From: an uncultured bacterium
GTDB taxonomy: Bacteria; Hydrothermota; UBA3072
Assembly (NCBI GenBank): GCA_964525555.1
Contig: CAZGHN010000006.1
Span: 74,805 to 138,804 of the forward strand
Reading direction: 5' to 3'
Length of the DNA: 64,000 nt
Below are positions 42,406 to 64,000 of the stretch, one piece after another (position 1 is the stretch's first letter; each line of letters begins with the position of its first letter). Under the pieces are notes generated by a model. That model made no database searches and had not been told where the DNA came from. It saw only the letters and a program-made list of their open reading frames with translations. A program made the position numbers and the translations under genes.

Positions 42406-44967
42406 TTATTTCGCTATTTTTATAATTTTCGTTTCTTCTACCTTTTCTCCGTCTATTTTTAAAACCGCGAAATAAACACCGGAAACGAGGTTCTCTCCCC
42501 ATTTCGTTGAGTAAGTACCAGGGTCCATTTTTTCATCCAGTAGAGTTGCCATTTTTCTTCCGGTTTTATCGAAAATAGATAAATTTATATCTGCTTTTGT
42601 TGTTATACTTAACTGTATATCCGTTTTATCTATAAAGGGGCTCTTGATGGATAAGTATTTATATTTACTTGCAGTTATATCATCTCCGTCAATGATGCCT
42701 CCTTGCGGAGCGAATCCTCCTACTGCGGCTACTGCAAAAGGTATTGAACCGTTAGGACAATTATAACCCTTAACAGTGATAGTGTAAGTACCGAATAGAC
42801 CGGAAGATAGCCATACTACTTCAACGTTATTTACCCTGTCTGCCGAGCCTCCTGTTTGGGAATATCCTCCGGAAAATACATTGCCTCTGTATCTATTGCT
42901 ATTGGGCGCTGTAACAATTAAATCCAGGTCGTTAATAAGTGTGGGATTCGCCAGTGTGCTTGCAGTCGTATCAGCCCATGCGAGAACAAATTTTAAAGGT
43001 TCTGTTGTGGTTGTAACATCGATTGTCATTACAGTTGAATCGTTTGTCGATACTCCTGAAGAGTTATCGTTTACGTACAGAAGTCTTGATTCTACCGAGA
43101 AATGAAGTGCATTATCGAGCACGACTCGTCCCCAGCCTTCTGCTCTACTTGGGACAGGATTCCCGTCATTCATATCAACTGAAGAGGCTATTAGTACTGC
43201 TTTAACGAGTGCCGCTGAAGGTGAAAGAGGTGTTCCCGATAGCGTGTCACCGGTCGGATAAAATCCGTCGAGAAAATACTGTCTAATCATAGCGCAGGCT
43301 CCTGATATTTGAGGAGCTGCCTGTGATGTTCCGACCATTCCTCCTAATTGTCCGTGAGCAGAATCTATAGCCCAGGTATATTCAGGATTTGCCCCCCAGA
43401 TAAAATGTCTGTAAGCTGAAAAAGGATCGGTACCTCCTGGAGCCACTACTTCGGGTTTTATTCTTCCGTCGGTTGTCCATCCTCTACCTGAAAAAGAAGC
43501 CATGGAATCTGGTGAAATGTCGTATGTCGGATTCCAGCACGCTCCTACTGCTATGCAGTTTTTAGCTGTCGCCGGACAACCTACGGTTGTATCTCTCGGA
43601 CCAAAATTGCCTGCCGAGAAGACAACGACAAAGTCTTTGTTATTCCAGACAGCATTATCAATATCTAATGCTGCTCCGAAATATTCTCCGAAGAGACTGG
43701 TGTAATCCCAGGAGTTTTGATGTATTCTTGAGTTATAGGTAGTATAAGCCTTGTTGAGAGAAGTAGCCAAGTTGAATGAACCCAGTTTACAGGAGTCATT
43801 TTGAGTATAACCCATATCCTGTATATATAGTCTTACAGGGAAATAATCCGGAGTATTTCCTCTTGTTTGTCCGCCCCAATCATATATTGACATTAAATTA
43901 GTACCTCTGGGATGATTATTAGCTATTGAAGGATTGGCGGCTACGATAGAAGAAACATTTGTTCCGTGGGAACATCCGCCTGGGGCAACAGGAGTTCTTG
44001 TTTCTACTAAATCTCCTCCTTCGTCTGTATATGCCTGTACAGATATGTGATTACTTCCAGGAGGGTCATCCTGTGGGTCCTGGAAAAATCCGCTCCAGTA
44101 ATCCAGTCCTGTATCAAAAATAGTTACGATTTCTCCTTTACCTGTTACTCCTTTATCCGCGAGTGTAATTCCGCTTGTTACCGTATCCCAGAGTTGTCCC
44201 AGGTCTATATCCGATGCCATTGTAAAGCTATCCAGAGGAACCTGAACTGAATATCTCCAGGTGGAGGAAGAAAGCACTTTTTTCGCGTATCGGACTATGG
44301 ATTCTACTCCCTTTATCTTTGCTAGCGCGTTTAGCGAATCGGGTCGTATTCTAACGATCATTCTGTTGTTATTTTTCTCTATTTGCTGTATATCCGAACC
44401 CCAGTTTTTCAGTTGTTCTGAGATATCATATATTGAAACACCTTCAAAAACTTGAACGGAAAGTTGAAGTAAAGGGTCATTTTCTCTCCATAATTCGTCT
44501 TTTCCGCAATTGCATTCCCCTTTGCTTATAATTTCTAATTGTCCATCTTTAAACCTTCCGGTAGCCATAGGAAGTTTATTTTCTATTTCTTCTTCTCTTG
44601 TTTTGTAAGCACTCGGATGAATTTTGTATTCTGGATGAAATAATCCTATCCATCTTACGAATGGTAATTGTTCTGCATTTGCCTTTTCTTCGGGTGTCAT
44701 CTCCACTATATACGCGAAATGGGGGATATAGTCGTGGAATACGCCTCCTGCCTCGGCTATTTTTTCTTTCCACTCGGTATAAATCGGTCCTGTGAATTGT
44801 AAGATATAATAGTTTTCTCCGTCTACTTCAGTTGCCTGCAGTGCACTTCGCAGTTTCGGAGTGCTTTTAAGCGGATCGAATTTGTTGTTTACAAGTGAAA
44901 TTGACATATCATTTGAAGCGAAAATAGAGTAAGTTATAAAAAGAAACATTACGAATAGTTTTTTCAT
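42406..44967 (-). CDS. subtilisin-like S8 serine peptidase with T9SS-type C-terminal sorting domain
   Basis: Catalytic triad contexts DTGLDYW, HGTNVSS, GTSQAAPQISG; signal peptide; C-terminal beta-sandwich tail. Confidence 0.8.
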   Translation of the reverse strand: MKKLFVMFLFITYSIFASNDMSISLVNNKFDPLKSTPKLRSALQATEVDGENYYILQFTGPIYTEWKEKIAEAGGVFHDYIPHFAYIVEMTPEEKANAEQLPFVRWIGLFHPEYKIHPSAYKTREEEIENKLPMATGRFKDGQLEIISKGECNCGKDELWRENDPLLQLSVQVFEGVSIYDISEQLKNWGSDIQQIEKNNNRMIVRIRPDSLNALAKIKGVESIVRYAKKVLSSSTWRYSVQVPLDSFTMASDIDLGQLWDTVTSGITLADKGVTGKGEIVTIFDTGLDYWSGFFQDPQDDPPGSNHISVQAYTDEGGDLVETRTPVAPGGCSHGTNVSSIVAANPSIANNHPRGTNLMSIYDWGGQTRGNTPDYFPVRLYIQDMGYTQNDSCKLGSFNLATSLNKAYTTYNSRIHQNSWDYTSLFGEYFGAALDIDNAVWNNKDFVVVFSAGNFGPRDTTVGCPATAKNCIAVGACWNPTYDISPDSMASFSGRGWTTDGRIKPEVVAPGGTDPFSAYRHFIWGANPEYTWAIDSAHGQLGGMVGTSQAAPQISGACAMIRQYFLDGFYPTGDTLSGTPLSPSAALVKAVLIASSVDMNDGNPVPSRAEGWGRVVLDNALHFSVESRLLYVNDNSSGVSTNDSTVMTIDVTTTTEPLKFVLAWADTTASTLANPTLINDLDLIVTAPNSNRYRGNVFSGGYSQTGGSADRVNNVEVVWLSSGLFGTYTITVKGYNCPNGSIPFAVAAVGGFAPQGGIIDGDDITASKYKYLSIKSPFIDKTDIQLSITTKADINLSIFDKTGRKMATLLDEKMDPGTYSTKWGENLVSGVYFAVLKIDGEKVEETKIIKIAK

Positions 44968-45019: not shown

Positions 45020-45043
45020 TGGTTTATTTTGCCACGAAGACAA

Positions 45044-45180: not shown

Positions 45181-45411
45181 TTTTGTTTTTTACAATTTAA
45201 CTATTTTTCTATTTAACAATTCAACTGATTCGAAGAATCTATAACACTGATTCACCGATTCACTATTTTACTGAATCACTGCTGTCTATTGATGCAATTT
45301 TTTCATAAGTGATACCGTTGATATTTTCATTGGTGACCCCAATTATACGCCAATTACGCAATTACAGAAGATTCAAAACCAATTTCATTGATATTGAATA
45401 TCAAAGTAATC

Positions 45412-46716
45412 TTAGTCAGATACCTTGGGTTCCCATAATTTTAGTTCGCTTATACATGCGTCATTATATTTGGAACCCTTGTATATATCTTTAATAATGA
45501 ATTTGACGGATTTAGTAACATGTGGTTCGATTTTAATCTTTTGTAAATCCATAGTATCTTTTAAATCTAGATTCATTGTTGAGCCATCCGAGAATGATAT
45601 CTCAAGGGTTTTTATTCTATTATTGGCATTAAATATGGCTTTTGATTTAGAGTAACCTGAAATGATATCAATTCTTTCGATATTATATTCCTCATCGAAA
45701 TCCAATTGTATCCATTCGCCTATACCGTCTCCTTCCGAACCTTCAACCCAGGCTGTATTATCATCATTATCAAATATATTGTCTATATCATATAAAAACT
45801 TGTTATTTTTATCGGTAAGAGTAGAAGAGCAGGTCACTTTCATATGATGTCTTTGAATTAACCCTTCGTTTTTCTTTAATTCCGCGATAATATTGTCTAA
45901 GTCTAACTCATAACAATCGACAAGTAGCCCGTTATCTCTGTTTTTCTCAAGGAAATCTATGACTTCCGGATTACAGATTTCTTCTATGTGAGAAAGGAAA
46001 TCATCAATTGGATAATAAACATCAGGTTTATTTATACTTTCTTCGAACGAATTAAGAATAAAATTAAGATTTTTCTCGTACTCATGATTGACCAGACAAT
46101 AAGCTTCCGCAATCGCTAATTCCTCTCTTATTCCCTTTGGCTTGAAATTCTTTAAAACTTCTACAATCCTTTTATCTCGTAATTCTGCCAATCTCCATAA
46201 AATTGGTAATGTAGATATATTTTTACTTTTAAACGGACCATCGAATGGACTCTTATTATCTTTATTGTGTAATTCATTATAGAGTTCTTGCATAAGATAG
46301 TCAAAAACTTTTGGTTTATTTATCTTCTCTAAAATAGATAAAGCAATATATAATGAATATTCACCTTTTTCGATATATCTCTTAACTTTACTATATAAAT
46401 TTGATTTTCTATCTGATGATATTTCTTTTAGAATCGACTCAAATAAATGTAATAATTTCTTTTCTTCAATATCGTCAGATAGCGAAAAGCTTTCAATTAT
46501 ACTTTTACTGGCTTCATCTGTACCAATCTCAATTAAATTTTCATAAGCTTGTTTTATTTTTTGATGATCTTCTTTGGTATTGATGCCTTCTGCAAGAATA
46601 TTTCTAATAATATTAGCGTGACGTTCAACATCTAAATCTTGTGATTTGTCTCCATTTGCTGATAATTGATAGCAAGAGCTAACAAAACATAGAATTATAA
46701 GGATACACGTTTTCAT
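45412..46716 (-). CDS. lipoprotein with helical N-terminal region and C-terminal galactose-binding/discoidin-like domain
   Basis: Lipobox LCFVSSC; C-terminal NTAWVEGSEGDGIGEWIQLDF...ISELKLW. Confidence 0.45.
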   Translation of the reverse strand: MKTCILIILCFVSSCYQLSANGDKSQDLDVERHANIIRNILAEGINTKEDHQKIKQAYENLIEIGTDEASKSIIESFSLSDDIEEKKLLHLFESILKEISSDRKSNLYSKVKRYIEKGEYSLYIALSILEKINKPKVFDYLMQELYNELHNKDNKSPFDGPFKSKNISTLPILWRLAELRDKRIVEVLKNFKPKGIREELAIAEAYCLVNHEYEKNLNFILNSFEESINKPDVYYPIDDFLSHIEEICNPEVIDFLEKNRDNGLLVDCYELDLDNIIAELKKNEGLIQRHHMKVTCSSTLTDKNNKFLYDIDNIFDNDDNTAWVEGSEGDGIGEWIQLDFDEEYNIERIDIISGYSKSKAIFNANNRIKTLEISFSDGSTMNLDLKDTMDLQKIKIEPHVTKSVKFIIKDIYKGSKYNDACISELKLWEPKVSD

Positions 46717-46784: not shown

Positions 46785-47738
46785 TTATTCCCAATAATAG
46801 TTGGGTCCGGCAAGGTCGGTTTTCGGATTAAACACCCGGGTGTTATCTGTTGGTGAAAGCAAAGATTGTAATGTATTATCTTCGGTAAACATTATATAAA
46901 TGTTATCTTCTTTAGGGTCGAAATCTTTGAAGTTCGCGTAAAAAGCTTTTTCATCTTCTCTGCTCATGAAAAGTACGCATCCTGCACTTTTTTCACCAAA
47001 GTGAAATAAACATAAAGTTTTATAATTTTTACCCGAGGCTGATTGAGTCACTGTTAATGAAATTTTAGTCCCTATTTCATTTGGCCACAAGTCTTTTCCA
47101 CCACGATCAGAAGCGTCAAGATTAGCTATATAAAGTGGAACTCCCTTGTTGGTTTTTGTAAATGTATTACTTTCCTTAAACACACCAGCATATTTAACAT
47201 TTGATGGCACAGATAAATATGGCTTGCCATTTTCTGCTGATGTATTTGCTTGACTATTTACCCTAAATTGAGAATTTAAGATAAATTTGTCATCCGCTGT
47301 CAGCCTTAGATTATCACAGTAACCTCCCGAATACCCAACATAATTCCTTACTACATTAATATTATAATCGGTTAAGCCACCAAGGTCAATTCGATTAATC
47401 GGATCATTTGTCGCGTACACATAAGGATTTAGACTTTGTGGGCCGGTTAAAAATAAATCTTGAGGCATAAGCGTATGCGGATCAGGGGTTATAAATCTCC
47501 CGGTATTACTGCTATAATACCTTGCTCCAAAGTAATTGAATCCAGACTTATCTTTTTCCTTTCCGGTGAAATCCCTATTGTCTTCAAGTGTTCCTGAAGT
47601 GCTTAAATTTATACCAAAACTCTCATATGACTTCTCCTTCACAATATCATCCTCATCTGTAATCATAATGGGGGAACCCAGTCTGTCAAGATGATAGAAA
47701 TACAATTTCCCATCCTTTTCTTTGGCAAGGAGGCGGTT
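46785..47738 (-). CDS. orphan rhs C-terminal cassette (start-less): core end (YFYHLDRLGSP...DPINRIDLGGL) plus unique toxin tip
   Basis: Frame opens directly after a stop; homology to rhs begins at NRLLAKEKDGKLYFYHLDRLGSP; no ATG or RBS. Confidence 0.6.
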   Translation of the reverse strand, partial: NRLLAKEKDGKLYFYHLDRLGSPIMITDEDDIVKEKSYESFGINLSTSGTLEDNRDFTGKEKDKSGFNYFGARYYSSNTGRFITPDPHTLMPQDLFLTGPQSLNPYVYATNDPINRIDLGGLTDYNINVVRNYVGYSGGYCDNLRLTADDKFILNSQFRVNSQANTSAENGKPYLSVPSNVKYAGVFKESNTFTKTNKGVPLYIANLDASDRGGKDLWPNEIGTKISLTVTQSASGKNYKTLCLFHFGEKSAGCVLFMSREDEKAFYANFKDFDPKEDNIYIMFTEDNTLQSLLSPTDNTRVFNPKTDLAGPNYYWE

Positions 47739-47755: not shown

Positions 47756-48781
47756 TTATTTTTTAAGGTTAACCAGAAAAACTTTGTCCTTTGAATCTTT
47801 ATCACGCATTAAAAAAACTATCTTCAAACCATCAGGAGACCATTTAGCTGCATGGTTTTTCCTGTATTCTTCTTTGAACCCAAATATTTTCACTGATTTT
47901 CCGGTCTCTAAAGAATATATAAAGACTCCTTCGATAGTTGAATATACCAATTTTTTATCATCCGGAGAAAATGCGCCTGGTGCGAAACCTGGTAGGTATC
48001 GAAAATTATCATCGTTAAAACTAAATAACTTAATATATTTTAAAGTATTAACATTGTAAATCCAATATTCATAAACCGAATTCTCATTTTCAGAAGGCCG
48101 ATAACTAGCATAAAATAAGAACATATTTCCGTCCGAGGACCATACTGGATCCGGATAAGCGGATTTTAAGTCTGTAAGACCGGGAATAACTACTTTTTTG
48201 AATTTCTGCTCTTCCAGATTAAAAAACCACATTCTTTCATCGTAATTTGGTTCTCCCGTCAATGAATCCCTTGGATTACATAAGTCTATAACAATAAAAA
48301 GATCGGTCCGAGTTCCAAAATTTATAGCGCTATTATCGCTGGCATACCTTTGGAATCCCTCAGGGAGACTAACGCTTTTCTTCTCTCCTGACGGATATTT
48401 TATTCTAAGTGTATCTTTATATATCCTGACCACGTATTCCCTGCAGGGACTTACAGCCCAATCATATCCAAACTTCTTAATCGTGTCTACATCAAAGACT
48501 TCTTTTATATTCTCCTTGTTCTTACAATTATCATAGTATAATCTTATAAACTCCATTTCATTAATGCGTAAAGAATCTTTAGTTTCCAGGTCAAGAAGAT
48601 AATATTCGTTATAAGGTTTATATATGGTTTTACCAGAACCTCTATATAGGATTTTATTGGATTCAGTCCACTCATATAGGTATTCTATCTTGTCCGCTTC
48701 AAATATTGCCTGAGCTTTGTAATAGTCAGAGCTACACATACTTATGGTTAGACAGATTAAATTAAGATTAAATAGAAACAT
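47756..48781 (-). CDS. PD40/TolB-like beta-propeller lipoprotein (candidate immunity protein)
   Basis: Start at ATG 48781 with RBS GGAGGA; lipobox LTISMC; repeated SPDG/SSDG motifs. Confidence 0.55.
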   Translation of the reverse strand: MFLFNLNLICLTISMCSSDYYKAQAIFEADKIEYLYEWTESNKILYRGSGKTIYKPYNEYYLLDLETKDSLRINEMEFIRLYYDNCKNKENIKEVFDVDTIKKFGYDWAVSPCREYVVRIYKDTLRIKYPSGEKKSVSLPEGFQRYASDNSAINFGTRTDLFIVIDLCNPRDSLTGEPNYDERMWFFNLEEQKFKKVVIPGLTDLKSAYPDPVWSSDGNMFLFYASYRPSENENSVYEYWIYNVNTLKYIKLFSFNDDNFRYLPGFAPGAFSPDDKKLVYSTIEGVFIYSLETGKSVKIFGFKEEYRKNHAAKWSPDGLKIVFLMRDKDSKDKVFLVNLKK

Positions 48782-48862
48782 CTTGTTTCTCCTCCAATTT
48801 TTCATTTTTTTATATTAAAGATAATACATTTCTATACTTATTCATACTTACCTTAACTCATT

Positions 48863-50383
48863 TCACAATGGAGAAATATAAGGTTCAGGCTCGAAAGACT
48901 CAAAAATCGCTTGCGGTGGATCTTTCATTACTTCGCAATCCTCAGGCGTCTCTTCTGAATCATTCTTTTCGAGTTCATCAATTTGACCTGTTAAATCTTT
49001 CATATCATCATTTGATAACCTTATACACCCATTGGTAGCCCTCAGTTCTTCTGTAGCCTCGGAGAGTTTTCCTCCATGGATTCTAAATAAATCACGATTA
49101 GACTTCTTTGCTTCGCCTGATTTTGGGTCAAGAAGTATTTTTCCGTTAGGACCAAAAGAGCTTAATTTTTTCCCTGTCAATTTCGATGTACTTTGTCTTC
49201 CTGTTATGTCGTAAGTTCCGTAAGGGGTATCTCCATTTTCAGCCATCCTGTCTCTATGATTTCCTCTCCCTAAGGCATCCCAGCTTTTAACAACAATTCC
49301 CTGTCTATTGCGTAAGTATAACCTACCAGTCGTACTACGGTCGTCAGAAAAAGCAACATCTATAGACCATAAACCATTCGGGTCTACACGCGTAAGTGGC
49401 GCATTTAAACAATACACATAAGGATTCAGTTCCTGTGGGTTAGCTAACTTCAATCCTCCAGGCATCAATGTATGCGGATCGGGGGTCAGGAATCTTCCGA
49501 TACTACTACTATAATACCTCGCACCAAAGTAATTGAATCCAGACTTATCTTTTTCTTTACCGGTGAAATCCCGATTGTCTTCGTTAACACCCGTACTACT
49601 AAGGGCAGTACCGAAACTCTCATAAGATTTTTCCTTCACAATATCATCCTCATCTGTAATCATAATGGGGGAACCCAGTCTGTCAAGATGATAATAATAG
49701 ATGTGTCCGTCTTCATCTTTGGCAAGGAGACGGTTTCCCGCATAGAAATACTTCTTCGGAGGAGTTCGCTCTGAACCCGATTCGCATCGGGCGTTATCCA
49801 CCCATAATTTTCCGCCGCCTAACATTCTTGCTATATGAAACTTAAAATTAGCCGCGCCTGAAGGGATATCTCCAGGATTTATCGTTACTGAAATCTTCAT
49901 CCAGTTATTTGTGCCTGTTATTATAGCCGATGATTTCCCTCCGAAACTCTGGGACCAATCCGCACTCCAGAAATCGACCATTACTTTCACTCCTCCCGAT
50001 AGATTTTGAGTCTTTACCCAGACGGAAGCGGTAAAGGGTTTTTTTACCTCTGATAATGAATTATGCTGTATCATGAGTTCCGTTGTGCCCATAGATTGAA
50101 AGAATGGGGAGTATAGGCAATATTTACCTTCCTGGGATTGCTGGGAGGTCACAGACCAATTAAAATCACCTTCCCATTGTCCCCAGCCCGTCTTATCTCC
50201 TGTTTCAAATCCGGGATTTTCAAGAATATTAGGTGAATCATCATCTTCTAAGATGAGGTTGCCCGCGTTATCATGGAAATAATTAATTATTTCAGTATTC
50301 GAAGTAGGACAGTCGGTGATCTCCTGACGAATTCTCGGATATCCTTTATAGGAATATTTATAATTACACAAATATGTCCCGGA
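48863..50383 (-). CDS. orphan rhs C-terminal cassette (start-less): CBM4/9-like domain, rhs core end, L,D-transpeptidase-fold toxin tip
   Basis: Homology to full-length rhs from YKGYPRIRQEIT onward; YYYHLDRLGSP...DPNGL; tip contains HGG-x17-TNGCIRL (YkuD catalytic signature); only a TTG at 50371, no RBS. Confidence 0.6.
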   Translation of the reverse strand, partial: SGTYLCNYKYSYKGYPRIRQEITDCPTSNTEIINYFHDNAGNLILEDDDSPNILENPGFETGDKTGWGQWEGDFNWSVTSQQSQEGKYCLYSPFFQSMGTTELMIQHNSLSEVKKPFTASVWVKTQNLSGGVKVMVDFWSADWSQSFGGKSSAIITGTNNWMKISVTINPGDIPSGAANFKFHIARMLGGGKLWVDNARCESGSERTPPKKYFYAGNRLLAKDEDGHIYYYHLDRLGSPIMITDEDDIVKEKSYESFGTALSSTGVNEDNRDFTGKEKDKSGFNYFGARYYSSSIGRFLTPDPHTLMPGGLKLANPQELNPYVYCLNAPLTRVDPNGLWSIDVAFSDDRSTTGRLYLRNRQGIVVKSWDALGRGNHRDRMAENGDTPYGTYDITGRQSTSKLTGKKLSSFGPNGKILLDPKSGEAKKSNRDLFRIHGGKLSEATEELRATNGCIRLSNDDMKDLTGQIDELEKNDSEETPEDCEVMKDPPQAIFESFEPEPYISPL

Positions 50384-50405: not shown

Positions 50406-50726
50406 CTACTCGATTTCTATCTCAATCCCGCCTATTTTTCGGGAAAGGAAATTGTAGAAAAGTCCTCCTAATAATCCAAATAAAAATCCACCAGTACCAT
50501 ACATAATTGGAAATAAAATGAAGCTTACTCTTCTATATATCCAGGATAGTATTGTCCCAGACAGCATAGGAGAATATCTTCCATATTCTGTTCCTATATA
50601 TATGCCTATTATTACGCCTGGAATAAGATAAAGAAAAGCGCAAATCTTCGCTACTGAAAGTACTCCTACTTTTTTTATCTCTACTACCTTTTTACCCTGT
50701 AATTCTTCTTCTTGTAAAGCTATCAT
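50406..50726 (-). CDS. small two-TM membrane protein (candidate immunity protein)
   Basis: 106 aa with two hydrophobic helices; lies between toxin cassettes. Confidence 0.4.
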   Translation of the reverse strand: MIALQEEELQGKKVVEIKKVGVLSVAKICAFLYLIPGVIIGIYIGTEYGRYSPMLSGTILSWIYRRVSFILFPIMYGTGGFLFGLLGGLFYNFLSRKIGGIEIEIE

Positions 50727-50742: not shown

Positions 50743-51834
50743 TTATTTTTGAGGATACCAGGAGATTTCTCCGCAAGAATAAGCGTGAATCCCTATAATT
50801 TTTCTCTTATTTGTCCCGTTGTTATTCATAACCCAGATTTCAGTATATTTATCATCCTCTATCTCTTCTACAATATATGCGATAAATTTATCATCAGGTG
50901 ATACCATGGGAGAATACTCATATATATCTGGCGAATTTGTCAGGTTCTTTTGGTTTTTACCATCACTATCCATCACAAAAATTTCACTTGGGAAATCTTT
51001 GGTTTCCCTTTTTATACTCCAGTCTATACATCTGCTAAAATAGATTTTCTTGCCGTCATTAGACCAACAAGGATCAAAATCAGGAAGATTATTATTTGTC
51101 AGTCTTTTATATTTTCCGTTCTCTATATTTATTACAAAGATCTCTGAGATAGAAGATTCAAAGGCAGTTCTACTTAGAGAGTCCGGAAGGGTGTAAGGGA
51201 GCCTTGTTTGTTCCGCTTCTAATTGTGTACTAAAAGCAATTTCTTTTTCATCCGGAGAAAGAGCAAAATCACCATAAAAGTTAGCTAATTCAGGACTTAT
51301 TTTCATGGCATTAAAAGAGATTTTGGACTGGACAGTGTCATGAACTATAAACTCATATCCGTCAAGATTAAATATAATCTTTCCTGAAGAAGTAGGTGCT
51401 ATAGAACAAATAATTCCATCTAGGTCTTTATATTTCTCTCTCTCGCTTTTTGGAAGGTTTTCCCAGCATCTAATTATTCTTCTTGTTCCCGTTGTATTCA
51501 TAATATAAATATCTGGATCATCTTGCCAACCCACAATACCATCGTCATATAAACCGGTCTCAAACCTTGTCCCAAGAAATAAAATTCCCGAGCCATCTGG
51601 TAACCAGACAGGATCTTCCAGAGGGTATCTTGTATTAGTTAACTGATATAGAGTATGAGGCGAATCTACTTTAACTGCAAATATCTGGGGATCTTTAATC
51701 GGATTACTGTTTGTATCCGCGGTAAAGAGTATAGTATTTGTGAAATCCACATTAGCCGGCAATTTCTCTACTTCAGCGTTACATCCGGTTAAGATTACAA
51801 TGAAAAGAAAGAAGACATTTATTTTTTTAATCAT
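50743..51834 (-). CDS. PD40/TolB-like beta-propeller lipoprotein (candidate immunity protein)
   Basis: Start at ATG 51834 with RBS GAGGAG, 11 nt after the stop of cassette 51845..53086; lipobox ILTGC; repeated LPDG/SNDG/SPDD motifs. Confidence 0.55.
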   Translation of the reverse strand: MIKKINVFFLFIVILTGCNAEVEKLPANVDFTNTILFTADTNSNPIKDPQIFAVKVDSPHTLYQLTNTRYPLEDPVWLPDGSGILFLGTRFETGLYDDGIVGWQDDPDIYIMNTTGTRRIIRCWENLPKSEREKYKDLDGIICSIAPTSSGKIIFNLDGYEFIVHDTVQSKISFNAMKISPELANFYGDFALSPDEKEIAFSTQLEAEQTRLPYTLPDSLSRTAFESSISEIFVINIENGKYKRLTNNNLPDFDPCWSNDGKKIYFSRCIDWSIKRETKDFPSEIFVMDSDGKNQKNLTNSPDIYEYSPMVSPDDKFIAYIVEEIEDDKYTEIWVMNNNGTNKRKIIGIHAYSCGEISWYPQK

Positions 51835-51844
51835 TATGCTCCTC

Positions 51845-53086
51845 TTACCAGTTTTGAATATCCTGAGGTATGACTTGAATATTTCCGTTATCATAAGACC
51901 CAATTGGACTATAACCACTAACTGCGTTATAATGTTGAAGGAAATCATTATCATATTTGCCTCCACCTCTTTTAATAAGACTCTTCGGATCTTTTCCTCG
52001 ATGTACTTCCTTTACAAATTTTTTCATTCTTGCAAGTTCTATCTCTGCTACCTCTGCTCCGTTCTTCTGGTCTTTATAAACTTTACTAAGATCTAGCCGG
52101 TCGTAACCCTCATAACCTGGCACTATTGCTTCCTCATGTTTGTGAGCAAACATTCCCATGCAGATTTTATCTATATCCCCTTCGCGGATTGTATTCATAG
52201 TACTAAAAAGGGTAACAATTCCCCAGAAAGCAGTAGTTGGAACGCCGGTAAATGCCGCCCCAGCCCAAAACCAATCTTCACCTGTTACAATTTCTGCGGA
52301 GGGGTAAGGTATCTCTTCAGGAGCTGTGGTTAAAGCTCCTGGGAAACGTCTCCTAAGGGTTAAAAATACACTACCCATTGGTACTATCGAACCAGCTGTT
52401 TCAGCCGTCCCTCGACCCAAAGTTACCCTATATACCATATTATCTGTAGTAGTGCGGAATAGGCCTTTCTTATCCACATAATACAACGGATCATTTGTGC
52501 AATAAACATACGGATTAAATGTTTGCGGGTCCGAAAGTTCCAAATTCCCCGGCATAAGCGTATGCGGATCAGGGGATATAAATCTTCCGGTATTACTACT
52601 ATAATACCTCGCACCAAAGTAATTGAATCCCGACTTATCTTTCTCTTTACCAGTAAACTCCCTATTATCCTCATGAGTCCCACTTGATGAGACCACCGCT
52701 CCAAACCCTTCATACGTTTTATCTTTCACAATATCATCCTCATCTGTAATCATAATGGGGGAACCGAGTCTGTCAAGATGATAATAATAGAGATGACCGT
52801 CTTCTTCTTTGGCAAGGAGACGGTTTCCCGCATAGAAATACTTCTTCGGAGGAGTTCGCTCTGAACCCGATTCGCATCGGGCGTTATCCACCCATAATTT
52901 TCCTGAACCGGATAGTTTTATAAGCATTACCTTAAGGGCTTCTACTTCCCATTCGGGCATATTTCCTTCATCTACCGTTAACAATATCTTTTGCCAGTTG
53001 TTTGTTCCTGTTATTGGATTAGATGTTATAAATTTGTTATGACCGATAGAGAGTAAGAATTGTCCAATGTCGAGATGCGACCCCAA
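51845..53086 (-). CDS. orphan rhs C-terminal cassette (start-less): partial CBM-like domain, rhs core end, unique toxin tip
   Basis: YYYHLDRLGSP...NDPLYYVDKKGL; frame opens after stop at 53087-89 (TTG only); 5' end abuts tandem repeat 53079..53151. Confidence 0.6.
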   Translation of the reverse strand: MGSHLDIGQFLLSIGHNKFITSNPITGTNNWQKILLTVDEGNMPEWEVEALKVMLIKLSGSGKLWVDNARCESGSERTPPKKYFYAGNRLLAKEEDGHLYYYHLDRLGSPIMITDEDDIVKDKTYEGFGAVVSSSGTHEDNREFTGKEKDKSGFNYFGARYYSSNTGRFISPDPHTLMPGNLELSDPQTFNPYVYCTNDPLYYVDKKGLFRTTTDNMVYRVTLGRGTAETAGSIVPMGSVFLTLRRRFPGALTTAPEEIPYPSAEIVTGEDWFWAGAAFTGVPTTAFWGIVTLFSTMNTIREGDIDKICMGMFAHKHEEAIVPGYEGYDRLDLSKVYKDQKNGAEVAEIELARMKKFVKEVHRGKDPKSLIKRGGGKYDNDFLQHYNAVSGYSPIGSYDNGNIQVIPQDIQNW

Positions 53087-54957: not shown

Positions 54958-55233
54958 TTACATTGTTTTAATAAAAACATAAAAAAGAAAAAATCCTATA
55001 CAAACGCAAAGAAAACCCATTACCCTAATGTATATAATATACGATTTGCTTTTCACCCAATCTACATAGGAAGAAATATCAACGTAACGATTCCGATTGA
55101 ATATAGACATATTATATATGGCTAAATTTTGAGTCTTATAGGGGAACAGCAATACTAATACCCCCACACTGATGAGAAAGAAACCGAATAACAGAACCTT
55201 CACATTAACAAGATTTTCTGAACCCATTGGCAC
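54958..55233 (-). CDS. small two-TM membrane protein immediately after rhs (candidate immunity protein)
   Basis: 91 aa, two hydrophobic helices; starts 16 nt after the rhs stop. Confidence 0.45.
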   Translation of the reverse strand: MPMGSENLVNVKVLLFGFFLISVGVLVLLFPYKTQNLAIYNMSIFNRNRYVDISSYVDWVKSKSYIIYIRVMGFLCVCIGFFLFYVFIKTM

Positions 55234-55248: not shown

Positions 55249-58200
55249 TTACCACTCAATTTCTTCAAACCTATAAATCTTCCCAGAATCCCAGTAATAA
55301 GTCGCACCTAACATAGGAACATAAACACCACCTTCCGTAGTCCAACCACTTCCAAAGAAATAATCTCCTTGAACGCCAATTATAGAGCCTCCGGCTGTCT
55401 CAATAGACTTTCTGGTCAGGCATTTTGAAAGTTCGTCTTCAGTTGGCGCTCGACGCCATCGGTTCATCTTACACATAGTACCCGCTGACAAACTACCAGA
55501 TAAAGGTATTAAAGATTTTCCCAGCTGTGGGCCATGTCCAAAGTACACATTCCCATACCTATCCAACTTTAAATTTATACTATATCCAATAATAGATCCT
55601 AAATTAATAGTAAGATTAAGATAATCAGGCCATTGTCCTCTCCAAAACTCATTAACAGCTTCTTGCATCGTAGGTCCTTGATAAATACCAAGATAAAAAC
55701 CCAAATAATTGAAAAAATGATACGGATCCATACTTGATGCGGTAACGATAATAGGATCCATTAAAAATATATCATCACCTATTTGGGTCGGTTCCAATCC
55801 CCATGGGTCAAAGAAATTTACTGGATCGTTATGGCAATACACATAAGGATTAAGTGTCTGCGGACGCTCTAAATTCACAAGTAGTGGATACAAGTTAATC
55901 GGATCAGGTGTAAAAAACCTACCGATATCCGCACTGTAATACCTCGCTCCAAAATAATGGAAACCGGTCTTATCTTTTTCTTTCCCAGTGAATTCACGGT
56001 TGTCATTATATGTACCATTGGACCAGCGTAAATTCCCAAACGCCTCATATAATCTTTCTTTTACAACATTACCATCTTCATCTGTTATCATAAGCGGTGA
56101 ACCGAGACGGTCAAGATGATAAAAATGAAGGTCTCCGTCATTTTCAGTCGCAAGAAGACGGTTCCCCGCATAGATATATCTTTTGGGAGCTGTAGTCTCA
56201 CTATCGTCATCCTCGAGAATGAGATTACCCGCGATATCATAGAAGTAATTAAAAATTTCCTTAGTTCCTGCCGGATACTGTGTAATTTTCTGTCTTATTC
56301 GCTGACTCCCTTTGTAATAATAATTGTACACTCTATCGGTTTCCATTGAATTAAGCGAAACAAGATTTCCATCCACATCATAGGTAAGACTGGCATCTTC
56401 CGAGACGCTGGTAAATCCATTTATCCTGCCATTTTCATCGTATGAATAGTTAAATTCACCGTCATTCTTTAACCTGTTGGTTCCGGAATAATAAGTATAA
56501 TTAGTACTATTGACGCTTTTCCTATTTCCGACCGTATCATAGGTGAAAATGAGTGTGTAACCCGGAATATAGGGATAACGACCGTAATAAATATTTTTCT
56601 TATCCTGCGTAAGTCTTCCGAGTTTATCGTATTGGTAAGATTTTACAATATCTCCAGGCCCGTCATCATGCCTGACTTCTTGATACACCTCTCCTCGTTT
56701 ATTGTAGCAAAATTGTGCTATATAGGGGTTGGCGGAAGGAATATTCTTTATTTCCATCCAGTACATCCAATTCCTTGGTCTATATGCAAATGTATCGGTA
56801 ATTCCACCGGGGAAATTTATGCCTCTTAAGAGGCCTGCTGCTGTGGATGAAAGATTGATCGTTTTGTAATCGTTAATTTCTACCGACGAGATATTGCCAA
56901 GTTTATCATATTCATATTCGACTTTGTACTCGTCCGGGTATTCCAGTTTAGTTAATCTTCCCCACAGATCGTAGGAATATTTGAATGTCTGTTCATCTAT
57001 ATCACCAATTAATGGTATTACAAGCTTTTCCCCAAGGTTTCCGAATTTATCGTAAAAATATACTTCCCTTACATTTGGATTTTGGAAACCCGTAAGTCTT
57101 CCTTTTGGAAAATTTAATCCTGAAGGTGCAGTATAAGGTGTACCTTTTATAGTATAGTTATCGTAGAAATATTCCTCCAGTGTATCAGGGAAAAACATGT
57201 AGCTTAATGAATCGTTTGTTATCACAAGGACTGATTTAATTGAATCTAGCCAGTTTTGTGATCCATGTGCAGGATAACCAGGAATAGCGGAATCAGTATG
57301 TTGGATCGCCATCCCACAAATAGTATTCCCAATATAATCCTCGCCTGGGTAAAGAAGAAAAGAATGATCTTGTTGCCAGGTTTTATTAATTGAAGAAAAG
57401 CCTTCTTGAATGGTGAACTCGCTACCAAAAGTATCGGCCGGATTTTCGAAATACACGAATAATGAACATATTCCGAAATAATTAGGAGGGTCAAATACCC
57501 AGGTTTTTGAATTAAATCTTATCCTTATCTCTTCACCTTCATCTTGCATTACATTTGCATCCTCAATGTCCCAGTATAGCCGACCAAGTTCGCGGTGGGG
57601 ATACATCCAGCTTTTACCAGGCACATACAATAAAGTGTCTTCAACCATATAGAATAGTGTATCCGGAGCAGGATCATGTATAGCCGGATTGATTTTGGTT
57701 TTTAATCTACCAAGATTATCATAAGTATAATAGATTGAATCACCGATATTTGTTCTACGAAGCTTTAAATTCCCATCAGGATAATATTCGAATGAATCTA
57801 CGCCTCTGTCAGGACCTTCTCTACGGATTAGTTCACCTAACCAGTTATAGTTAAAATCAGTGAATTTTCCTTCTGCGCCTTCAATTTCTATTAAGTTTCC
57901 GTTTGCGTCGTAATCGTAATAAGTATGATAATCGAGAGCATCTATGACCTCTACCAAGCTGCCTGTTGCATCGTTAATTAATGTGGTATAATATCCTTTC
58001 TCATCTCTTACATCTGTTATATTCCCATTATATTCATAGGTAACAAATTCGGCTCCAGGATCTTCAGAGCTTTTGGGATATTCTATCTCGGTTACTCTTC
58101 CAAGTGCATCGAAAGTCTTTTTTACTGTGTCCGCGTTTGCTGCACTGTTAAACCGTAGTGCTGTTTCCTTATTCATACGCCCATTATTATCATAAAAATA

Positions 58201-60846
58201 TTCCTTTATTACATGCTCGCCAGGATCTCCTAATACCGAATCTTGTTTAAGCCTTCCTAACTGGTCGTAACAGTAGATTATAGTGCTTGAGTCCGAAGAA
58301 GAAGAAAAAGATTTTGCTTTTGCAATCCTGTCGAAATCGTCATATTTATATTTGTTTAAAACATCGCTGCCGATTTTATCCAGAGTAAGTCTTCCGTAAC
58401 AATCATATTCGAATTCTCTTGAAACTTCATTCTTATCAGTGTGCCCTATAAGTTGCCCATCCGAATTAAAGTCGAAGTCCTCTTTTGAGCCATCAGGATA
58501 TATTACTGTGTCAGGGAATACCTCATTAGAACAGTAATCGAATTGAGATTCCTCTCCCATGTAATCTCGCATTTTTACTAGATTCCCGCAAATGTCATAC
58601 CAGTATTCCTGTGTACGGGATTCGGAATTGTTTGTCCATTCTATTTTCTTGGTGAGGTTCCCGCGGATTTTAAAATCAGCACCAAAGTCTTCAGAATCAT
58701 GAAAACCCGGGTTAGAAATGTTGCTTAAATTAGTTTCATCATACCGAAAATAAGTTTTTCCTATTCTTTGTCCTGTAATTTTAAATTTGTGTATTGCTAT
58801 CGGAAGATTGCACAACACACGATGATGGAAATTCCAACCTCCTTCTCCACCATAGCAATCCTCACACCATTCTGCAAGCTCGATATATAGAGCATCTACT
58901 TCATGTTTAAAATGCTTTATCTCTTTCCAGCTGTCATCTAAATCCAGGTCCTCGTAAGAAATTTTTTCGTTATCAACCTTATCTAAGTCTAAGCCTGGCA
59001 TAATAGCTGTAGTAAATACAGTTAGCAAGTATGGAAAATCAAATTCTTCAATACTTTCCCATCCTATACCTGTACATTCCACATCCCCTCGATAAATGTA
59101 TTCTCTTATATTACCAAACCTATCATAACTGTTATATTCGTATAGTTCTACAATATCTCCAATACCTACCTCAAGATCAGATGGATCTTTCTGTACGGCT
59201 TTGCATTTCAATGTTGGGCGTAAATGAATTGGCGGCATAAACAAATAGAGACTATCTATTGCCCAATATAAACGCGTCAATTCTAAAGTGTCTCCTTCTT
59301 TATCAAATTTTACTACCTTGTAAGGTTTACCGTAAATAAATTTCCTTGCCTTAGGGATGACCCTTTCGGAGATTACCACCTCATCTCTACCTTCATGTTC
59401 GAAAAATCTGTAATGATCCCCATTCTCCAGATATTCATTATTAATATGCCAGTAAACTATACTATCTCCTTCGGGCATAACAACCGCGCATTTTTTATAC
59501 ATGGGATAATATCCAAATATTTGCGAATTTACCCCATGAGACCAATTATCTTTAAAATCTCCATGAGTACATTCCATTTCACCTACAGAACTCACCGCGA
59601 GTGAATCATGACCTGGATAATGATATTCATACACTAAAGTTTTGGAATCCTCAGAAAGAAAAACTTCTTTCTTTTTGATTCTGCGGTATTTGGTAGGCGC
59701 GGCGATGCCTGAGCCAGACACCGTCTCATACTCATAACTGTATTCCGCGCCGTCAGGAGTGATAAATCTGACGAGTTCCCCTGTATTATTATCATAAAAA
59801 AACTGATAAGAAGGTTTCATTTTTTGCCCTTCAAAATGAAAAGATATCGAATCCAGAAGTGCGTGTTCACGAACATACCAGTATTCAATTGCATCGTCTA
59901 AATGTTTAGCCGTATAGTAGAATTTAACCTTGTAACAACCATCGTTTATCCAATGAACTAAGCTATCAATAAGATAAAACTTATCCCAACAAGGCCTATC
60001 TGGGTAAATAGGGTCTAACATTTTAGGATAAAATTTACAGTGAGAGGTAGGAGTAATAATACTATCGGGGATTCTGCCAGCCGGAGGGCAAGGGGCCGCA
60101 TCCTGCCAGGTAAATCGCACATAATTGCCATTCCTGTCCTCCATCTCTGTTAGCATATAATCAAGTCTGCGTCTCTTCTCCGGTTCTGATGGGTACTCAG
60201 GATCGGGACCGTAATCCAGTATATTCTCGAAGGTATATTTATATTCTGGCGTTGCAACAAAAGCTCTAAGATTACTTGCGAAACCAATCCAATTTTTTTC
60301 ACCTAAAACATGCCACAACCAAGCATCAAAAACATTGAAAGTTTTTTGCACAGTGTAAAACTGCCCATTAATACACGTGAAACCCACATCGCCCGTAGCA
60401 ATATTGCCAGTTCCCGGGGATCCGGGAACAGAAAATTCTCCCGGCATTACATTCCAACCTAAACCACAGGTACCTATATCCCCAGTAACCAAAAAAGCAT
60501 CATTTAGCGCCACATTAGAATGCGAATAGCAATCACCTGGAGTGAGCTGCGTCACCGATAAGGGAGAACCTCGATAGGTTAAATATACATTATAATCTTT
60601 ATTTCCTCTCATTGGCAAACTTGTAAGTTTTATTTTGAGAGACACAGTCCCGTTTGAAACATCTATATTTTCCGCAACAGTATTAGTCGATATGGTCGTT
60701 TTGTTAAAACCTACCGAGTATGCATCAAAACCGTGTGAATACATATCCTCAGTAATTTCATCAGAGGTTTTTATTTCAAGCGAATCATAAGCGGCAAGGG
60801 GGTTAGCTACGGAACTCCCAATGTTGCCAAATAAAAATACTATCAT
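55249..60846 (-). CDS. rhs: full-length RHS/YD-repeat polymorphic toxin
   Basis: 1865 aa; many YD repeats (e.g. YEYDANGNLIEI); core end FYHLDRLGSPLMITDEDG...DPWGL followed by a ~230-aa unique C-terminal tip. Confidence 0.85.
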   Translation of the reverse strand: MIVFLFGNIGSSVANPLAAYDSLEIKTSDEITEDMYSHGFDAYSVGFNKTTISTNTVAENIDVSNGTVSLKIKLTSLPMRGNKDYNVYLTYRGSPLSVTQLTPGDCYSHSNVALNDAFLVTGDIGTCGLGWNVMPGEFSVPGSPGTGNIATGDVGFTCINGQFYTVQKTFNVFDAWLWHVLGEKNWIGFASNLRAFVATPEYKYTFENILDYGPDPEYPSEPEKRRRLDYMLTEMEDRNGNYVRFTWQDAAPCPPAGRIPDSIITPTSHCKFYPKMLDPIYPDRPCWDKFYLIDSLVHWINDGCYKVKFYYTAKHLDDAIEYWYVREHALLDSISFHFEGQKMKPSYQFFYDNNTGELVRFITPDGAEYSYEYETVSGSGIAAPTKYRRIKKKEVFLSEDSKTLVYEYHYPGHDSLAVSSVGEMECTHGDFKDNWSHGVNSQIFGYYPMYKKCAVVMPEGDSIVYWHINNEYLENGDHYRFFEHEGRDEVVISERVIPKARKFIYGKPYKVVKFDKEGDTLELTRLYWAIDSLYLFMPPIHLRPTLKCKAVQKDPSDLEVGIGDIVELYEYNSYDRFGNIREYIYRGDVECTGIGWESIEEFDFPYLLTVFTTAIMPGLDLDKVDNEKISYEDLDLDDSWKEIKHFKHEVDALYIELAEWCEDCYGGEGGWNFHHRVLCNLPIAIHKFKITGQRIGKTYFRYDETNLSNISNPGFHDSEDFGADFKIRGNLTKKIEWTNNSESRTQEYWYDICGNLVKMRDYMGEESQFDYCSNEVFPDTVIYPDGSKEDFDFNSDGQLIGHTDKNEVSREFEYDCYGRLTLDKIGSDVLNKYKYDDFDRIAKAKSFSSSSDSSTIIYCYDQLGRLKQDSVLGDPGEHVIKEYFYDNNGRMNKETALRFNSAANADTVKKTFDALGRVTEIEYPKSSEDPGAEFVTYEYNGNITDVRDEKGYYTTLINDATGSLVEVIDALDYHTYYDYDANGNLIEIEGAEGKFTDFNYNWLGELIRREGPDRGVDSFEYYPDGNLKLRRTNIGDSIYYTYDNLGRLKTKINPAIHDPAPDTLFYMVEDTLLYVPGKSWMYPHRELGRLYWDIEDANVMQDEGEEIRIRFNSKTWVFDPPNYFGICSLFVYFENPADTFGSEFTIQEGFSSINKTWQQDHSFLLYPGEDYIGNTICGMAIQHTDSAIPGYPAHGSQNWLDSIKSVLVITNDSLSYMFFPDTLEEYFYDNYTIKGTPYTAPSGLNFPKGRLTGFQNPNVREVYFYDKFGNLGEKLVIPLIGDIDEQTFKYSYDLWGRLTKLEYPDEYKVEYEYDKLGNISSVEINDYKTINLSSTAAGLLRGINFPGGITDTFAYRPRNWMYWMEIKNIPSANPYIAQFCYNKRGEVYQEVRHDDGPGDIVKSYQYDKLGRLTQDKKNIYYGRYPYIPGYTLIFTYDTVGNRKSVNSTNYTYYSGTNRLKNDGEFNYSYDENGRINGFTSVSEDASLTYDVDGNLVSLNSMETDRVYNYYYKGSQRIRQKITQYPAGTKEIFNYFYDIAGNLILEDDDSETTAPKRYIYAGNRLLATENDGDLHFYHLDRLGSPLMITDEDGNVVKERLYEAFGNLRWSNGTYNDNREFTGKEKDKTGFHYFGARYYSADIGRFFTPDPINLYPLLVNLERPQTLNPYVYCHNDPVNFFDPWGLEPTQIGDDIFLMDPIIVTASSMDPYHFFNYLGFYLGIYQGPTMQEAVNEFWRGQWPDYLNLTINLGSIIGYSINLKLDRYGNVYFGHGPQLGKSLIPLSGSLSAGTMCKMNRWRRAPTEDELSKCLTRKSIETAGGSIIGVQGDYFFGSGWTTEGGVYVPMLGATYYWDSGKIYRFEEIEW

Positions 60847-60980: not shown

Positions 60981-60997
60981 TTAGCCACACCCACCAC

Positions 60998-62686: not shown

Positions 62687-64000
62687 TTATTTTCCCTCCC
62701 ATACAATAAAGGCAGAGGCGCCTAAACCACCGACAACAAAGACTCCTGACTCCACATAAAATCCACTCCACCATGGGTTAGCGGGACCCCAACCCACCTG
62801 AGTACCTAAAACAAATCCTGCTTGAACACTTATGTTCAAACCAGGAGAAGGCTCCTTATAGCCATCATTTACCATTACCATGGCACCCGGAGGTATACTT
62901 ACACTTGGAGAGATCCCAAGATAATAATATGGTTTTCCATCGTCAGTGATTATTTTTCCTCCAGTAATTATTACTACACTTACACCTAAATCTACGTAAT
63001 CAACCGAAGGATCCTCCTCAAAGTGCTTGGCAAACGTTGCCCAGTCTGGATCCTTTTTTGTATCGTCTTGACCCTTTTCATTAAAAACACCCGTCTGAGC
63101 ATTAGTACTGGTATTATCAGCAGCAACAAAAGCCCAGGAAGGGTTATCGAAATACATAATTGAACCAGACCCATACTGATTAATTATATCCTGCTGCCTT
63201 TTATAATCCCAATACGCAATGGGATCTTCTTCATAGCTTATTGGTGACTCTTGTAATCCTAATAAATCCACATATTTAAGTGGGCTATTTCTACAGTAAA
63301 TATACGGATTTAAACTCTGTGGAATTGCCAATGTAAGCCCAGCGGGCGTAAGCGTATGCGGATCAGGGATCAGGAATCTTCCGATGTCGCCGCTGTAATA
63401 TCTCGCGCCGAAGTAATGAAATCCTGTCGGGTCTTTTTCCTTTCCCGTGAATTCTCGGTTATCTTCGAGTGTACCTGAAGAAGATACTAAGTTACCAAAT
63501 GCTTCGTATTCTCTCCGTTTTACCACAATACCATTCTCATCTGTAATCATAATCGGAGAACCAAGACGGTTAAGATGATAGAAATGAAGCTCTCCGTCGA
63601 TTTCGGATGCAAGGAGACGGTTTCCAGCATAATAGTATTTCGTTTCAGGTGTTCGCTCGGTTCCCGATTCACATCTGGCGTTATCAACCCATAGTTGTCC
63701 ACTTCCTAACATTCTTGCTATATGAAATTTGAAATTAACCGCGCCGGAAGGTATATCTCCAGGATTTATCGTTACTGAAATCTTTTGCCAGTTATGTGTG
63801 CCTGTTATTATTGCCGATGATTTGCCTCCATAACTCTGAGACCAATCCTCACTCCAGAAATCGACCATTACCTTCACTCCTCCCGATAAATTCTTAGTCT
63901 TTACCCAGACGGAAGCGGTAAAGGATTTTTTTACCTTTGATAATGAAAATTGCTGTATCATGAGTTCCATTGTGCCCATCGTTTGAAAATATGGGGAGTA
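62687..64000 (-). CDS. rhs: RHS toxin C-terminal region (CBM4/9-like domain, core end, unique tip); N-terminus beyond window end
   Basis: Frame open to nt 64000 (YSPYFQTMGTMELMIQQ parallels the orphan cassettes); HFYHLNRLGSP...VDLLGL then a unique ~200-aa tip. Confidence 0.7.
   Translation of the reverse strand, partial: YSPYFQTMGTMELMIQQFSLSKVKKSFTASVWVKTKNLSGGVKVMVDFWSEDWSQSYGGKSSAIITGTHNWQKISVTINPGDIPSGAVNFKFHIARMLGSGQLWVDNARCESGTERTPETKYYYAGNRLLASEIDGELHFYHLNRLGSPIMITDENGIVVKRREYEAFGNLVSSSGTLEDNREFTGKEKDPTGFHYFGARYYSGDIGRFLIPDPHTLTPAGLTLAIPQSLNPYIYCRNSPLKYVDLLGLQESPISYEEDPIAYWDYKRQQDIINQYGSGSIMYFDNPSWAFVAADNTSTNAQTGVFNEKGQDDTKKDPDWATFAKHFEEDPSVDYVDLGVSVVIITGGKIITDDGKPYYYLGISPSVSIPPGAMVMVNDGYKEPSPGLNISVQAGFVLGTQVGWGPANPWWSGFYVESGVFVVGGLGASAFIVWEGK

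Follow-up and report, generated by a model that had tools for sequence, protein, structure and literature searches.

What can be the role of an RHS gene fragment that has kept the C-terminal end of the protein and little of what normally precedes it? The question is raised by a 64,000-nucleotide stretch of DNA from an uncultured bacterium (contig CAZGHN010000006.1; hereafter the window), in which an orphan RHS C-terminal cassette (48863..50371, - strand) is followed by a gene for a PD40-type beta-propeller protein. Two issues are central: (i) whether the C-terminal tip of the cassette is a toxin, and of which kind; and (ii) whether the gene that follows encodes the matching immunity protein. 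With regard to the first, the cassette very probably encodes an RHS toxin with the L,D-transpeptidase (LDT) fold, of the kind named Tox-LD-peptidase.

The cassette and its tip

The open reading frame (ORF) of the cassette specifies 502 aa from its first TTG, with the stop codon at 48863-48865. An earlier note on this DNA, made from the sequence alone, had rightly taken the ORF as real and had extended it to 50383, which is merely an upstream open stretch. The NCBIfam model Rhs_assc_core (TIGR03696) matches aa 250-334 (49370..49624, -) with 67.5 bits, the cut-off being 32.5, and Pfam RHS also matches the ORF. The TIGR03696 match stops on the boundary motif DPNGL (aa 330-334; 49370..49384, -), the end of the RHS core, one residue ahead of the tip. 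When the cassette is aligned with four paralogues, the five RHS ends of the window are alike through DxxGL and have unrelated tips beyond it, the near-identity running through ...YHLDRLGSP.MITDE...FTGKEKD..GF.YFGARYYS...GRF..PDP...NPY.Y..N.P....D..GL. As judged from this alignment, the cassette has the usual layout of polymorphic RHS toxins, a core with a variable tip behind it.

The cassette has neither a YD-repeat shell nor an N-terminal trafficking domain, and its homology to the full-length RHS protein of the window (RHS-B, 55249..60846) begins at about aa 1535 of that 1865-aa protein. Because only ~45 aa of shell are present, ahead of an insert, the ORF is regarded as an orphan fragment. 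The insert itself (~160 aa; 49757..50236, -) lies between ..ILEDDDS and KKYFYAGNRLL and resembles the carbohydrate-binding module (CBM) family CBM_4_9 of Pfam below threshold (E 2.4e-4, 21.9 bits; gathering score 25.9). It is also found in the rhs gene end at 62687..64000 (~63500-64000) and partially in the cassette at 51845..53086 (within 52700-53086); RHS-B is without it and has the five residues ETTAP in its place. In RHS-A and the orphans it is set into the shell shortly ahead of the core end, and it may be a carbohydrate- or target-binding module on the outer face of the shell.

The tip comprises the last 168 aa (aa 335-502; 48866..49369, -) and is placed in the YkuD superfamily by profile and by fold. 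The interval previously proposed for it, 48863..49350, falls within these limits, the stop codon aside. The C-terminal part of the ORF runs ...DPNGLWSIDVAFSDDRSTTGRLYL...GDTPYGTYDI...SSFGPNGKILLDPKSGEAKKSNRDLFRIHGGKLSEATEELRATNGCIRLSNDDMKDL..., and the catalytic region reads ...RIHGGKLSEATEELRATNGCIRLSNDDMKDL.... Conservation and alignment with the structure 4lzh point to His432 in RIHGG (tip His98; codon 49076..49078, -) as the predicted catalytic histidine, and to Cys449 in TNGCIRL (tip Cys115; codon 49025..49027, -) as the predicted catalytic cysteine. The motif had been given in the earlier note as HGG-x17-TNGCIRL; this was a miscount, the actual spacing being HGG-x11-TNGCIRL and 17 being the offset from His to Cys.

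The Pfam model YkuD (PF03734) reaches 36.2 bits with the ORF and 38.7 bits with the tip alone (gathering score 23.4; E 1e-8 to 2e-9). A word-indexed protein search with the tip alone returned one relative; only when all 1.84 billion cluster representatives were scanned with HMMER did the family emerge, with 518 clusters at E<=1e-3 and 83 at E<=1e-10. In two family alignments, A1 and A2 (45 and 73 relatives), His98, Thr112 and Arg117 (tip numbering) are invariant, while Cys115 and Gly114 show no variation in A1 and at least 90% conservation in A2. Conserved columns make up GDTPxGxY, the Gly of SYGPN, HGG and TxGC[IVLM]R. YkuD matched all 45 aligned relatives, and every residue that is invariant in the clade is present in the window tip. 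Compared with PDB sequences, the clade profile found its best match (E 1e-3) in 4lzh, a Klebsiella L,D-transpeptidase, whose IHG and SHGCVRLRNDD align with IHGG and TNGCIRLSNDD of the tip, so that His and Cys coincide.

For the tip, AlphaFold2 with the 73-sequence alignment gave a model of mean pLDDT 89.9, in which confidence is high for residues 1-139 and low for the acidic tail (~aa 475-502 of the ORF). In a Foldseek comparison with the PDB, Bd1075 came first (E 7.6e-5), followed by LdtMt5, Pgp2 and an Acinetobacter L,D-transpeptidase. The beta-sandwich of the LDT fold, on which the earlier note had staked its reading, is thus present in the model, and the structures matched are LDT-fold enzymes. 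Profile matches, family conservation and fold comparison agree on an RHS tip with a YkuD-type His/Cys site, as that note had proposed. The tip probably acts in the periplasm, and it is likely that peptidoglycan stems are its target as a toxin; glucosaminidase fusions within the clade, described below, were counted toward a peptidoglycan target.

The YkuD-type clade and known LDT-fold proteins

Among the 150 best cluster representatives of the clade, an RHS core end directly precedes the domain in at least 53 (local hidden Markov model (HMM) test), and about 20 more show an NP....DPxG end by eye; the RHS-linked proteins include lengths from 1,042 to 2,316 aa. Within the remainder, 51 begin with the domain itself, usually as MPKIVVELPxDR and without a leader. 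Other members (P0154, P0168, P0184 and others) are stand-alone proteins with Sec or Tat signal peptides, and two (P0207, P0213) are fused to a glucosaminidase domain (PF01832). On account of the glucosaminidase fusions and the Sec/Tat stand-alone forms, the clade, as its sequences indicate, is not confined to RHS toxins and reaches beyond them. The His-to-Cys offset ranges from 14 to 49 with a mode of 16, and is 10 in none of 143 members; directly ahead of G-C, 40 members have His and 37 have Asn, with other residues in the rest.

The closest relative of the tip (45% identical) belongs to a set of three tandem mini-toxins on the metagenome contig L001. These lie at 6271-10430 of the contig (ENA ERZ27256505, k141_5744863), inside a type II secretion system (T2SS)/type IV pilus-like cluster. 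Each consists of a signal peptide, the last ~40 RHS core residues (AGRYYDARVGRFLQVDP...NPLKYVDPDG) and a tip, with no YD repeats; the three tips differ, and a small gene for a protein with a hydrophobic N-terminus comes after every one of the mini-toxins.

RHS-linked Tox-LD-peptidase toxins were defined computationally by Zhang, de Souza, Anantharaman, Iyer & Aravind (2012; PMC3482391), who described H/S/C residues, Imm16 (DUF2750) or Imm57 immunity, export by T2SS/Sec, a type VI secretion system (T6SS) or TcdB/TcaC, and Bacteroidetes among the phyla. Like the window tip, the Tox-LD-peptidase is a C-terminal toxin domain of the L,D-peptidase fold on an RHS protein with a linked downstream gene; its partners are Imm16 and Imm57, whereas the window cassette has a PD40 beta-propeller protein downstream. 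By its sequence features, the tip is a member of this class. The fusion of an LDT fold to an RHS core, which the earlier note had pointed out, is indeed present, but it is not a novelty, given the 2012 description and the known Rhs-DUF2778 fusions. In the literature searched there was no experimental characterisation of a YkuD-type RHS clade member. Further LDT-fold proteins, the L,D-carboxypeptidases Pgp2 of C. jejuni, Csd6 of H. pylori and Bd1075 of Bdellovibrio, have 18-19% sequence identity to the tip; unlike it, they serve in housekeeping or in the control of cell shape, carry an additional NTF2-like domain, are borne by no RHS protein and lack an immunity gene.

The downstream PD40 gene as candidate immunity gene

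The candidate immunity gene, which encodes a PD40/TolB-like beta-propeller protein, occupies 47756..48805 (-) and starts 57 nt (or 81 nt) past the toxin stop on the same strand. The likelier start is the ATG at 48781 (341 aa), which has GGAGGAG 7 nt ahead and is also used in the database copy. The product matches PD40 with 30.2 bits (gathering score 20.9) and DPPIV_N with 21.5 bits, just under the gathering score of 22; the match to the TolB-propeller model is partial. Its N-terminus, MFLFNLNLICLTISMC|SS (..LTISMC|SS), is hydrophobic and ends in Cys. Because the lipobox is not canonical, lipoprotein status is only probable, and from its N-terminus the protein is probably exported or lipidated. 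The earlier description of this gene product as a PD40-propeller lipoprotein therefore holds for the propeller and, for lipidation, as a probability. In a search of 5.8 billion proteins, no homologue of the PD40 protein was found besides itself. Its database copy, like that of the window protein RHS-B, comes only from short Logan contigs of SRR14802572. A single-sequence AlphaFold2 model was poor (pLDDT 49); its fold matches were all propellers, TolB first, with root-mean-square deviations mostly >10 Å.

The position of the gene makes its product a candidate immunity protein, and we somewhat favour the view that it protects against this tip. Beta-propellers were not found among immunity proteins by Zhang et al. 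(2012; PMC3482391). Tsi1, the immunity protein of the peptidoglycan amidase Tse1 in Pseudomonas aeruginosa, is a partial propeller that is closest to the DPP IV propeller, and is the only known immunity case of a propeller scaffold. Tse1-Tsi1 thus combines a peptidoglycan effector with a periplasmic partial-propeller immunity protein, and the window PD40 protein is likewise near DPPIV_N. However, Tse1 is an NlpC/P60-type amidase and not an LDT, Tsi1 is much smaller than the PD40 protein, and the comparison is one of predicted fold and role.

The genes found at this position in relatives are informative in this respect. In all nine distinct RHS-linked relatives (L001/L017, L018, L003, L019, L005, L007, L009, L012 and L016), the toxin gene is followed by one for a protein of ~190-270 aa that has no Pfam family and whose N-terminus, on inspection by eye, is hydrophobic, similar to a signal peptide or of the lipoprotein type; the loci L025/26 and L028 are similar in having a gene for an exported-type protein after the toxin. 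That the export signal is universal in these downstream proteins fits a periplasm-acting toxin. Between L001 and L018 the tips are 71% identical and the downstream proteins 54%, and between L003 and L019 the figures are 77% and 51%; in sub-clades with tips no more than 46% identical, the downstream proteins are unrelated. The downstream proteins therefore co-vary with the tip sub-clade, which is the behaviour of toxin-immunity pairs.

Neither Imm16 (DUF2750) nor Imm57 was detected in the downstream protein of the window or in those of seven relatives (Pfam, E<=0.1; the existence of an Imm57 model in Pfam is unconfirmed). The downstream proteins of L007 and L016 give a weak pairwise match (E 2e-4). 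A helical 'DGxxSE' motif shared by six downstream proteins, possibly Imm57-like, was considered and set aside, the left-out member having ranked first in one of six leave-one-out HMM trials. Kinship between the PD40 protein and the downstream protein of the closest relatives was also considered, and no relation was seen by BLASTP, phmmer or hhalign (probability 1.3%).

The RHS array of the window

The cassette is the second of three orphans in an array that is read along the - strand. The array begins with the 3' end of another rhs gene (RHS-A, 62687..64000), whose frame is open to base 64000, the window edge. Two small genes separate RHS-A from RHS-B (55249..60846, -), a full-length RHS protein of 1865 aa with its own unrelated tip and matches to RHS_repeat, RHS, YD_repeat and Rhs_assc_core; a 91-aa membrane protein (54958..55233, -) follows it. 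After a TPR gene on the + strand comes orphan cassette 1 (51845..53086, -), with a different tip, parts of which are hydrophobic. Next come the genes of a second PD40 lipoprotein (50743..51966, likely start 51834, -), whose lipobox, LTGC, is canonical and whose ribosome-binding site is GAGGAG, and of a 106-aa membrane protein (50406..50726, -). Orphan 2 is the cassette described above, with its PD40 gene. The last member is orphan cassette 3 (46785..47705, -), again with a different tip, followed by a 434-aa exported F5/8-type C (NADase_transloc) protein (45412..46716, -). The C-terminal part of this protein matches the NAD glycohydrolase translocation F5/8 type C domain (PF25302, E 2e-39), and it is an unusual occupant of an immunity slot. 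The two PD40 proteins of the window are similar at the repeat level only. It is conceivable, although a little less than an even prospect, that both serve as immunity proteins, the one at 47756..48805 being cognate to the LDT-fold tip and the one at 50743..51834 to the neighbouring tip.

At the DNA level, orphan 2 is 78.8% identical to RHS-A over 717 nt, with exact tracts of 32 and 29 nt, and 71.5% identical to RHS-B, with a longest exact tract of 17 nt; the longest exact tracts shared with orphans 1 and 3 are 98 nt and 62 nt, respectively. RHS-A carries the same CBM-like insert as orphan 2, and the repeat families D1-D3. By these sequence features the orphans are of the RHS-A lineage, which makes RHS-A a plausible recombination partner, and we infer that it is the most plausible one for orphan 2. 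The organization recalls the orphan rhs/cdi modules of Enterobacteria, with which it shares an array of 3' ends after a full gene, a kept core end, differing tips, downstream genes of their own and identity tracts that would permit recombination. Unlike those modules, the window orphans resemble RHS-A and not RHS-B, the gene that they follow, and their host is apparently a low-GC anaerobe with type IX secretion system (T9SS)-type sorting domains; no T6SS gene was seen in the ORFs scanned. Secreted proteins nearby carry T9SS type A sorting domains, PFOR genes are present in the window, and the GC content is ~36%, a combination that may point to the FCB group. A scan of 44 of the 50 window ORFs of at least 150 aa gave no T6SS, PAAR or VgrG domain.

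A direct repeat of ~250 nt (45021-45254 and 60974-61222; three blocks of 72-96% identity, one of 78 nt at 96%) flanks the 16-kb segment that holds RHS-B and all three orphans, and occurs in the window only twice. Read on the - strand, it comes directly before a gene for a secreted protein in both places (an S8 protease at 42406..44967, and RHS-B). No Rfam family matches the repeat, which might have arisen by duplication of a regulatory or 5' region, or else be a scar left by an insertion or duplication. In all three orphans, a sigma-70-like sequence, TTGACA-16-TATGAT (11/12), is found at an equivalent spot (52776-52749, 49686-49659 and 47689-47662, -), within the codons that specify a conserved HLDRLGSPIMIT motif. 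The site may serve the tip and immunity gene as a promoter inside the cassette, or may simply reflect the conservation of the coding sequence; sigma-70-like matches are not enriched overall in the region (50 found vs 41±5 expected). Elsewhere in the window, 3953-6301 encodes a ThiF-JAB fusion protein (782 aa), and 11095-12171 holds adjacent Roadblock/LC7 and small Ras-like GTPase genes, which are MglB/MglA-like.

Proposed mechanism

We think it reasonably likely that these elements belong to a single scheme, in which an orphan LDT-fold RHS cassette provides a toxin against peptidoglycan stems and the PD40 protein provides immunity. The cassette would be silent alone, and would be deployed once homologous recombination joined its tip to the 3' end of a full-length rhs gene, the most plausible acceptor being the CBM-bearing rhs gene with its end at 62687. 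The window ORFs scanned show no T6SS, PAAR or VgrG gene, and export of the RHS protein would therefore follow another route, for example Sec plus a further step. Autoproteolysis at the core-end motif is known from RHS and Tc toxins; by analogy, we infer that the core domain would cleave at DPNG|L in the cassette protein and so free the tip. In the target periplasm, Cys449 would attack the L,D bond (mDAP3-D-Ala4) of peptidoglycan tetrapeptide stems, which would be trimmed or rewired (L,D-carboxypeptidase activity and/or exchange, as for Tlde1, Csd6, Pgp2 and Bd1075) with a weaker wall as the outcome. Stem trimming or exchange appears the likeliest chemistry, on the basis of the model, whose closest structures are L,D-carboxypeptidases, and of analogy with Tlde1, which combines the two activities. 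In the producer, the exported PD40 beta-propeller protein would bind the tip and give protection.

A number of observations weigh against this scheme. In the tip, the His of the canonical (S/T)HGC motif is replaced by Asn, a position that is variable across the clade; the existence of Sec/Tat-exported and of leaderless stand-alone forms means that some clade members need not be toxins. The scheme also requires an RHS protein to reach a target periplasm without a T6SS, and the low identity and short exact tract shared with RHS-B make recombination with that gene unlikely. Other points concern immunity. The signal peptide and lipobox of the PD40 protein are atypical, and none of the relatives' loci examined has a PD40 neighbour beside the tip; the closest relatives, with tips 45-46% identical, use a conserved 195-aa exported protein that is unrelated to PD40. 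Moreover, the second PD40 lipoprotein of the array comes after a different, unrelated tip, and PD40 proteins may therefore serve another role here.

Alternative explanations

Two other identities for the tip can be set against that of a Tox-LD-peptidase. The tip might be a true Tlde1-family (PF10908) effector of a type VI system located elsewhere in the genome, in line with the Tlde1-type affinity suggested in the earlier note. Tlde1 of Salmonella Typhimurium (Tlde1a, or Tae5) has L,D-carboxypeptidase and D-amino-acid exchange activities on tetrapeptide stems and a periplasmic immunity protein, Tldi1; it shares with the tip the LDT fold and the His/Cys pair, and some members are Rhs-fused, Rhs-DUF2778 fusions making up 11% of one Tlde1 sub-family (Sibinelli-Sousa et al. 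2020). Tlde1_dom does score 30.3 bits on the isolated tip, barely above its gathering score of 30.1, but PF10908 stays below threshold on the ORF (27.6 bits) and YkuD scores higher on ORF and tip alike; PF10908 touches five of the 45 relatives that YkuD matches throughout. The His-to-Cys offset of 17 compares with 10 in Tlde1a (H121/C131), a value outside the range of the clade, and the family profile does not retrieve Tlde1a among PDB sequences. Tlde1 (DUF2778/PF10908) is accompanied by DUF2195 immunity and a T6SS context, whereas the downstream gene here is of the PD40 type, not DUF2195, and the scanned ORFs of the window are free of T6SS, PAAR and VgrG domains. Because the profile score on the ORF, the His-Cys spacing, the immunity type and the genomic context do not fit, the tip is assigned to a separate YkuD-superfamily clade outside the Tlde1 family, and a Tlde1 effector is an extremely improbable explanation. 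There are also LDT-fold enzymes that act on the producer's own wall: E. coli LdtA-C tether Lpp covalently to peptidoglycan, and DpaA releases such links. A comparable anchoring or remodelling function, in which the tip covalently tethers the RHS protein, or a different one, to the producer's peptidoglycan or releases such links, would suit the Sec/Tat-exported stand-alone enzymes of the clade. We nevertheless consider it very unlikely for the window tip, which sits past the DPxGL boundary in a slot that holds unrelated tips in four sister cassettes, and whose relatives have beside them exported proteins that evolve fast and change along with the tip sub-clade, as toxin-immunity pairs do. By the same reasoning, RHS-linked versions were classed as toxins by Zhang et al. 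(2012).

Granted a toxin tip, it may be asked whether the pair is still functional. The cassette might be a decaying relic of past rhs rearrangements, with both tip and PD40 gene devoid of present function: it has no N-terminal shell or export domain and no canonical start, a TTG opening the ORF right after the upstream gene; its identity to the full-length copies is only 71-79%, and the cassette protein and its PD40 neighbour are both database singletons. This is unlikely in view of a frame of 502 codons that is free of stops and frameshifts, the retention of all clade-invariant residues, the strong GGAGG-type ribosome-binding sites kept at both PD40 genes, and exact tracts of 29-98 nt in common with other copies, which permit recombination. 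A more serious alternative, which we rate as possible but on the doubtful side, is that the tip is a toxin whose cognate immunity gene has been lost, or that the PD40 protein has some other function in the envelope. The lack of a PD40 neighbour in any tip relative and the different exported protein of the closest relatives speak for it, as does the second PD40 gene, since the small membrane protein behind that gene could be the immunity protein of the preceding tip. The close same-strand position behind the toxin stop, the strong ribosome-binding site and the exported-type N-terminus of the PD40 protein argue instead for immunity. A singleton sequence is usual for immunity genes, immunity families switch among tip sub-clades, and Tsi1 sets a precedent for a DPPIV-like partial propeller as an immunity protein.

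Significance

For the most part, an LDT-fold RHS toxin cassette in this window confirms the 2012 prediction from comparative genomics and extends it to an uncultured low-GC anaerobe, without adding a new category. What is unusual is the PD40 candidate immunity protein alone, and no other part of the explanation is as weakly supported. The YkuD-type clade (518 clusters at 50% identity) often serves as an RHS toxin tip and has no solved structure; a characterised example would tell stem trimming, D-amino-acid exchange and aberrant cross-linking apart.

Finally, we note that the window offers a compact pair of toxin and candidate immunity gene, with the PD40 propeller as a possible new immunity scaffold. 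If the two PD40 proteins are indeed cognate to the tips that they follow, the full-size PD40 propeller would be a reusable immunity scaffold in the RHS arrays of bacteria that have a T9SS and no T6SS, and the locus would provide a handle on how peptidoglycan-acting RHS toxins are delivered to a target periplasm independently of a T6SS.

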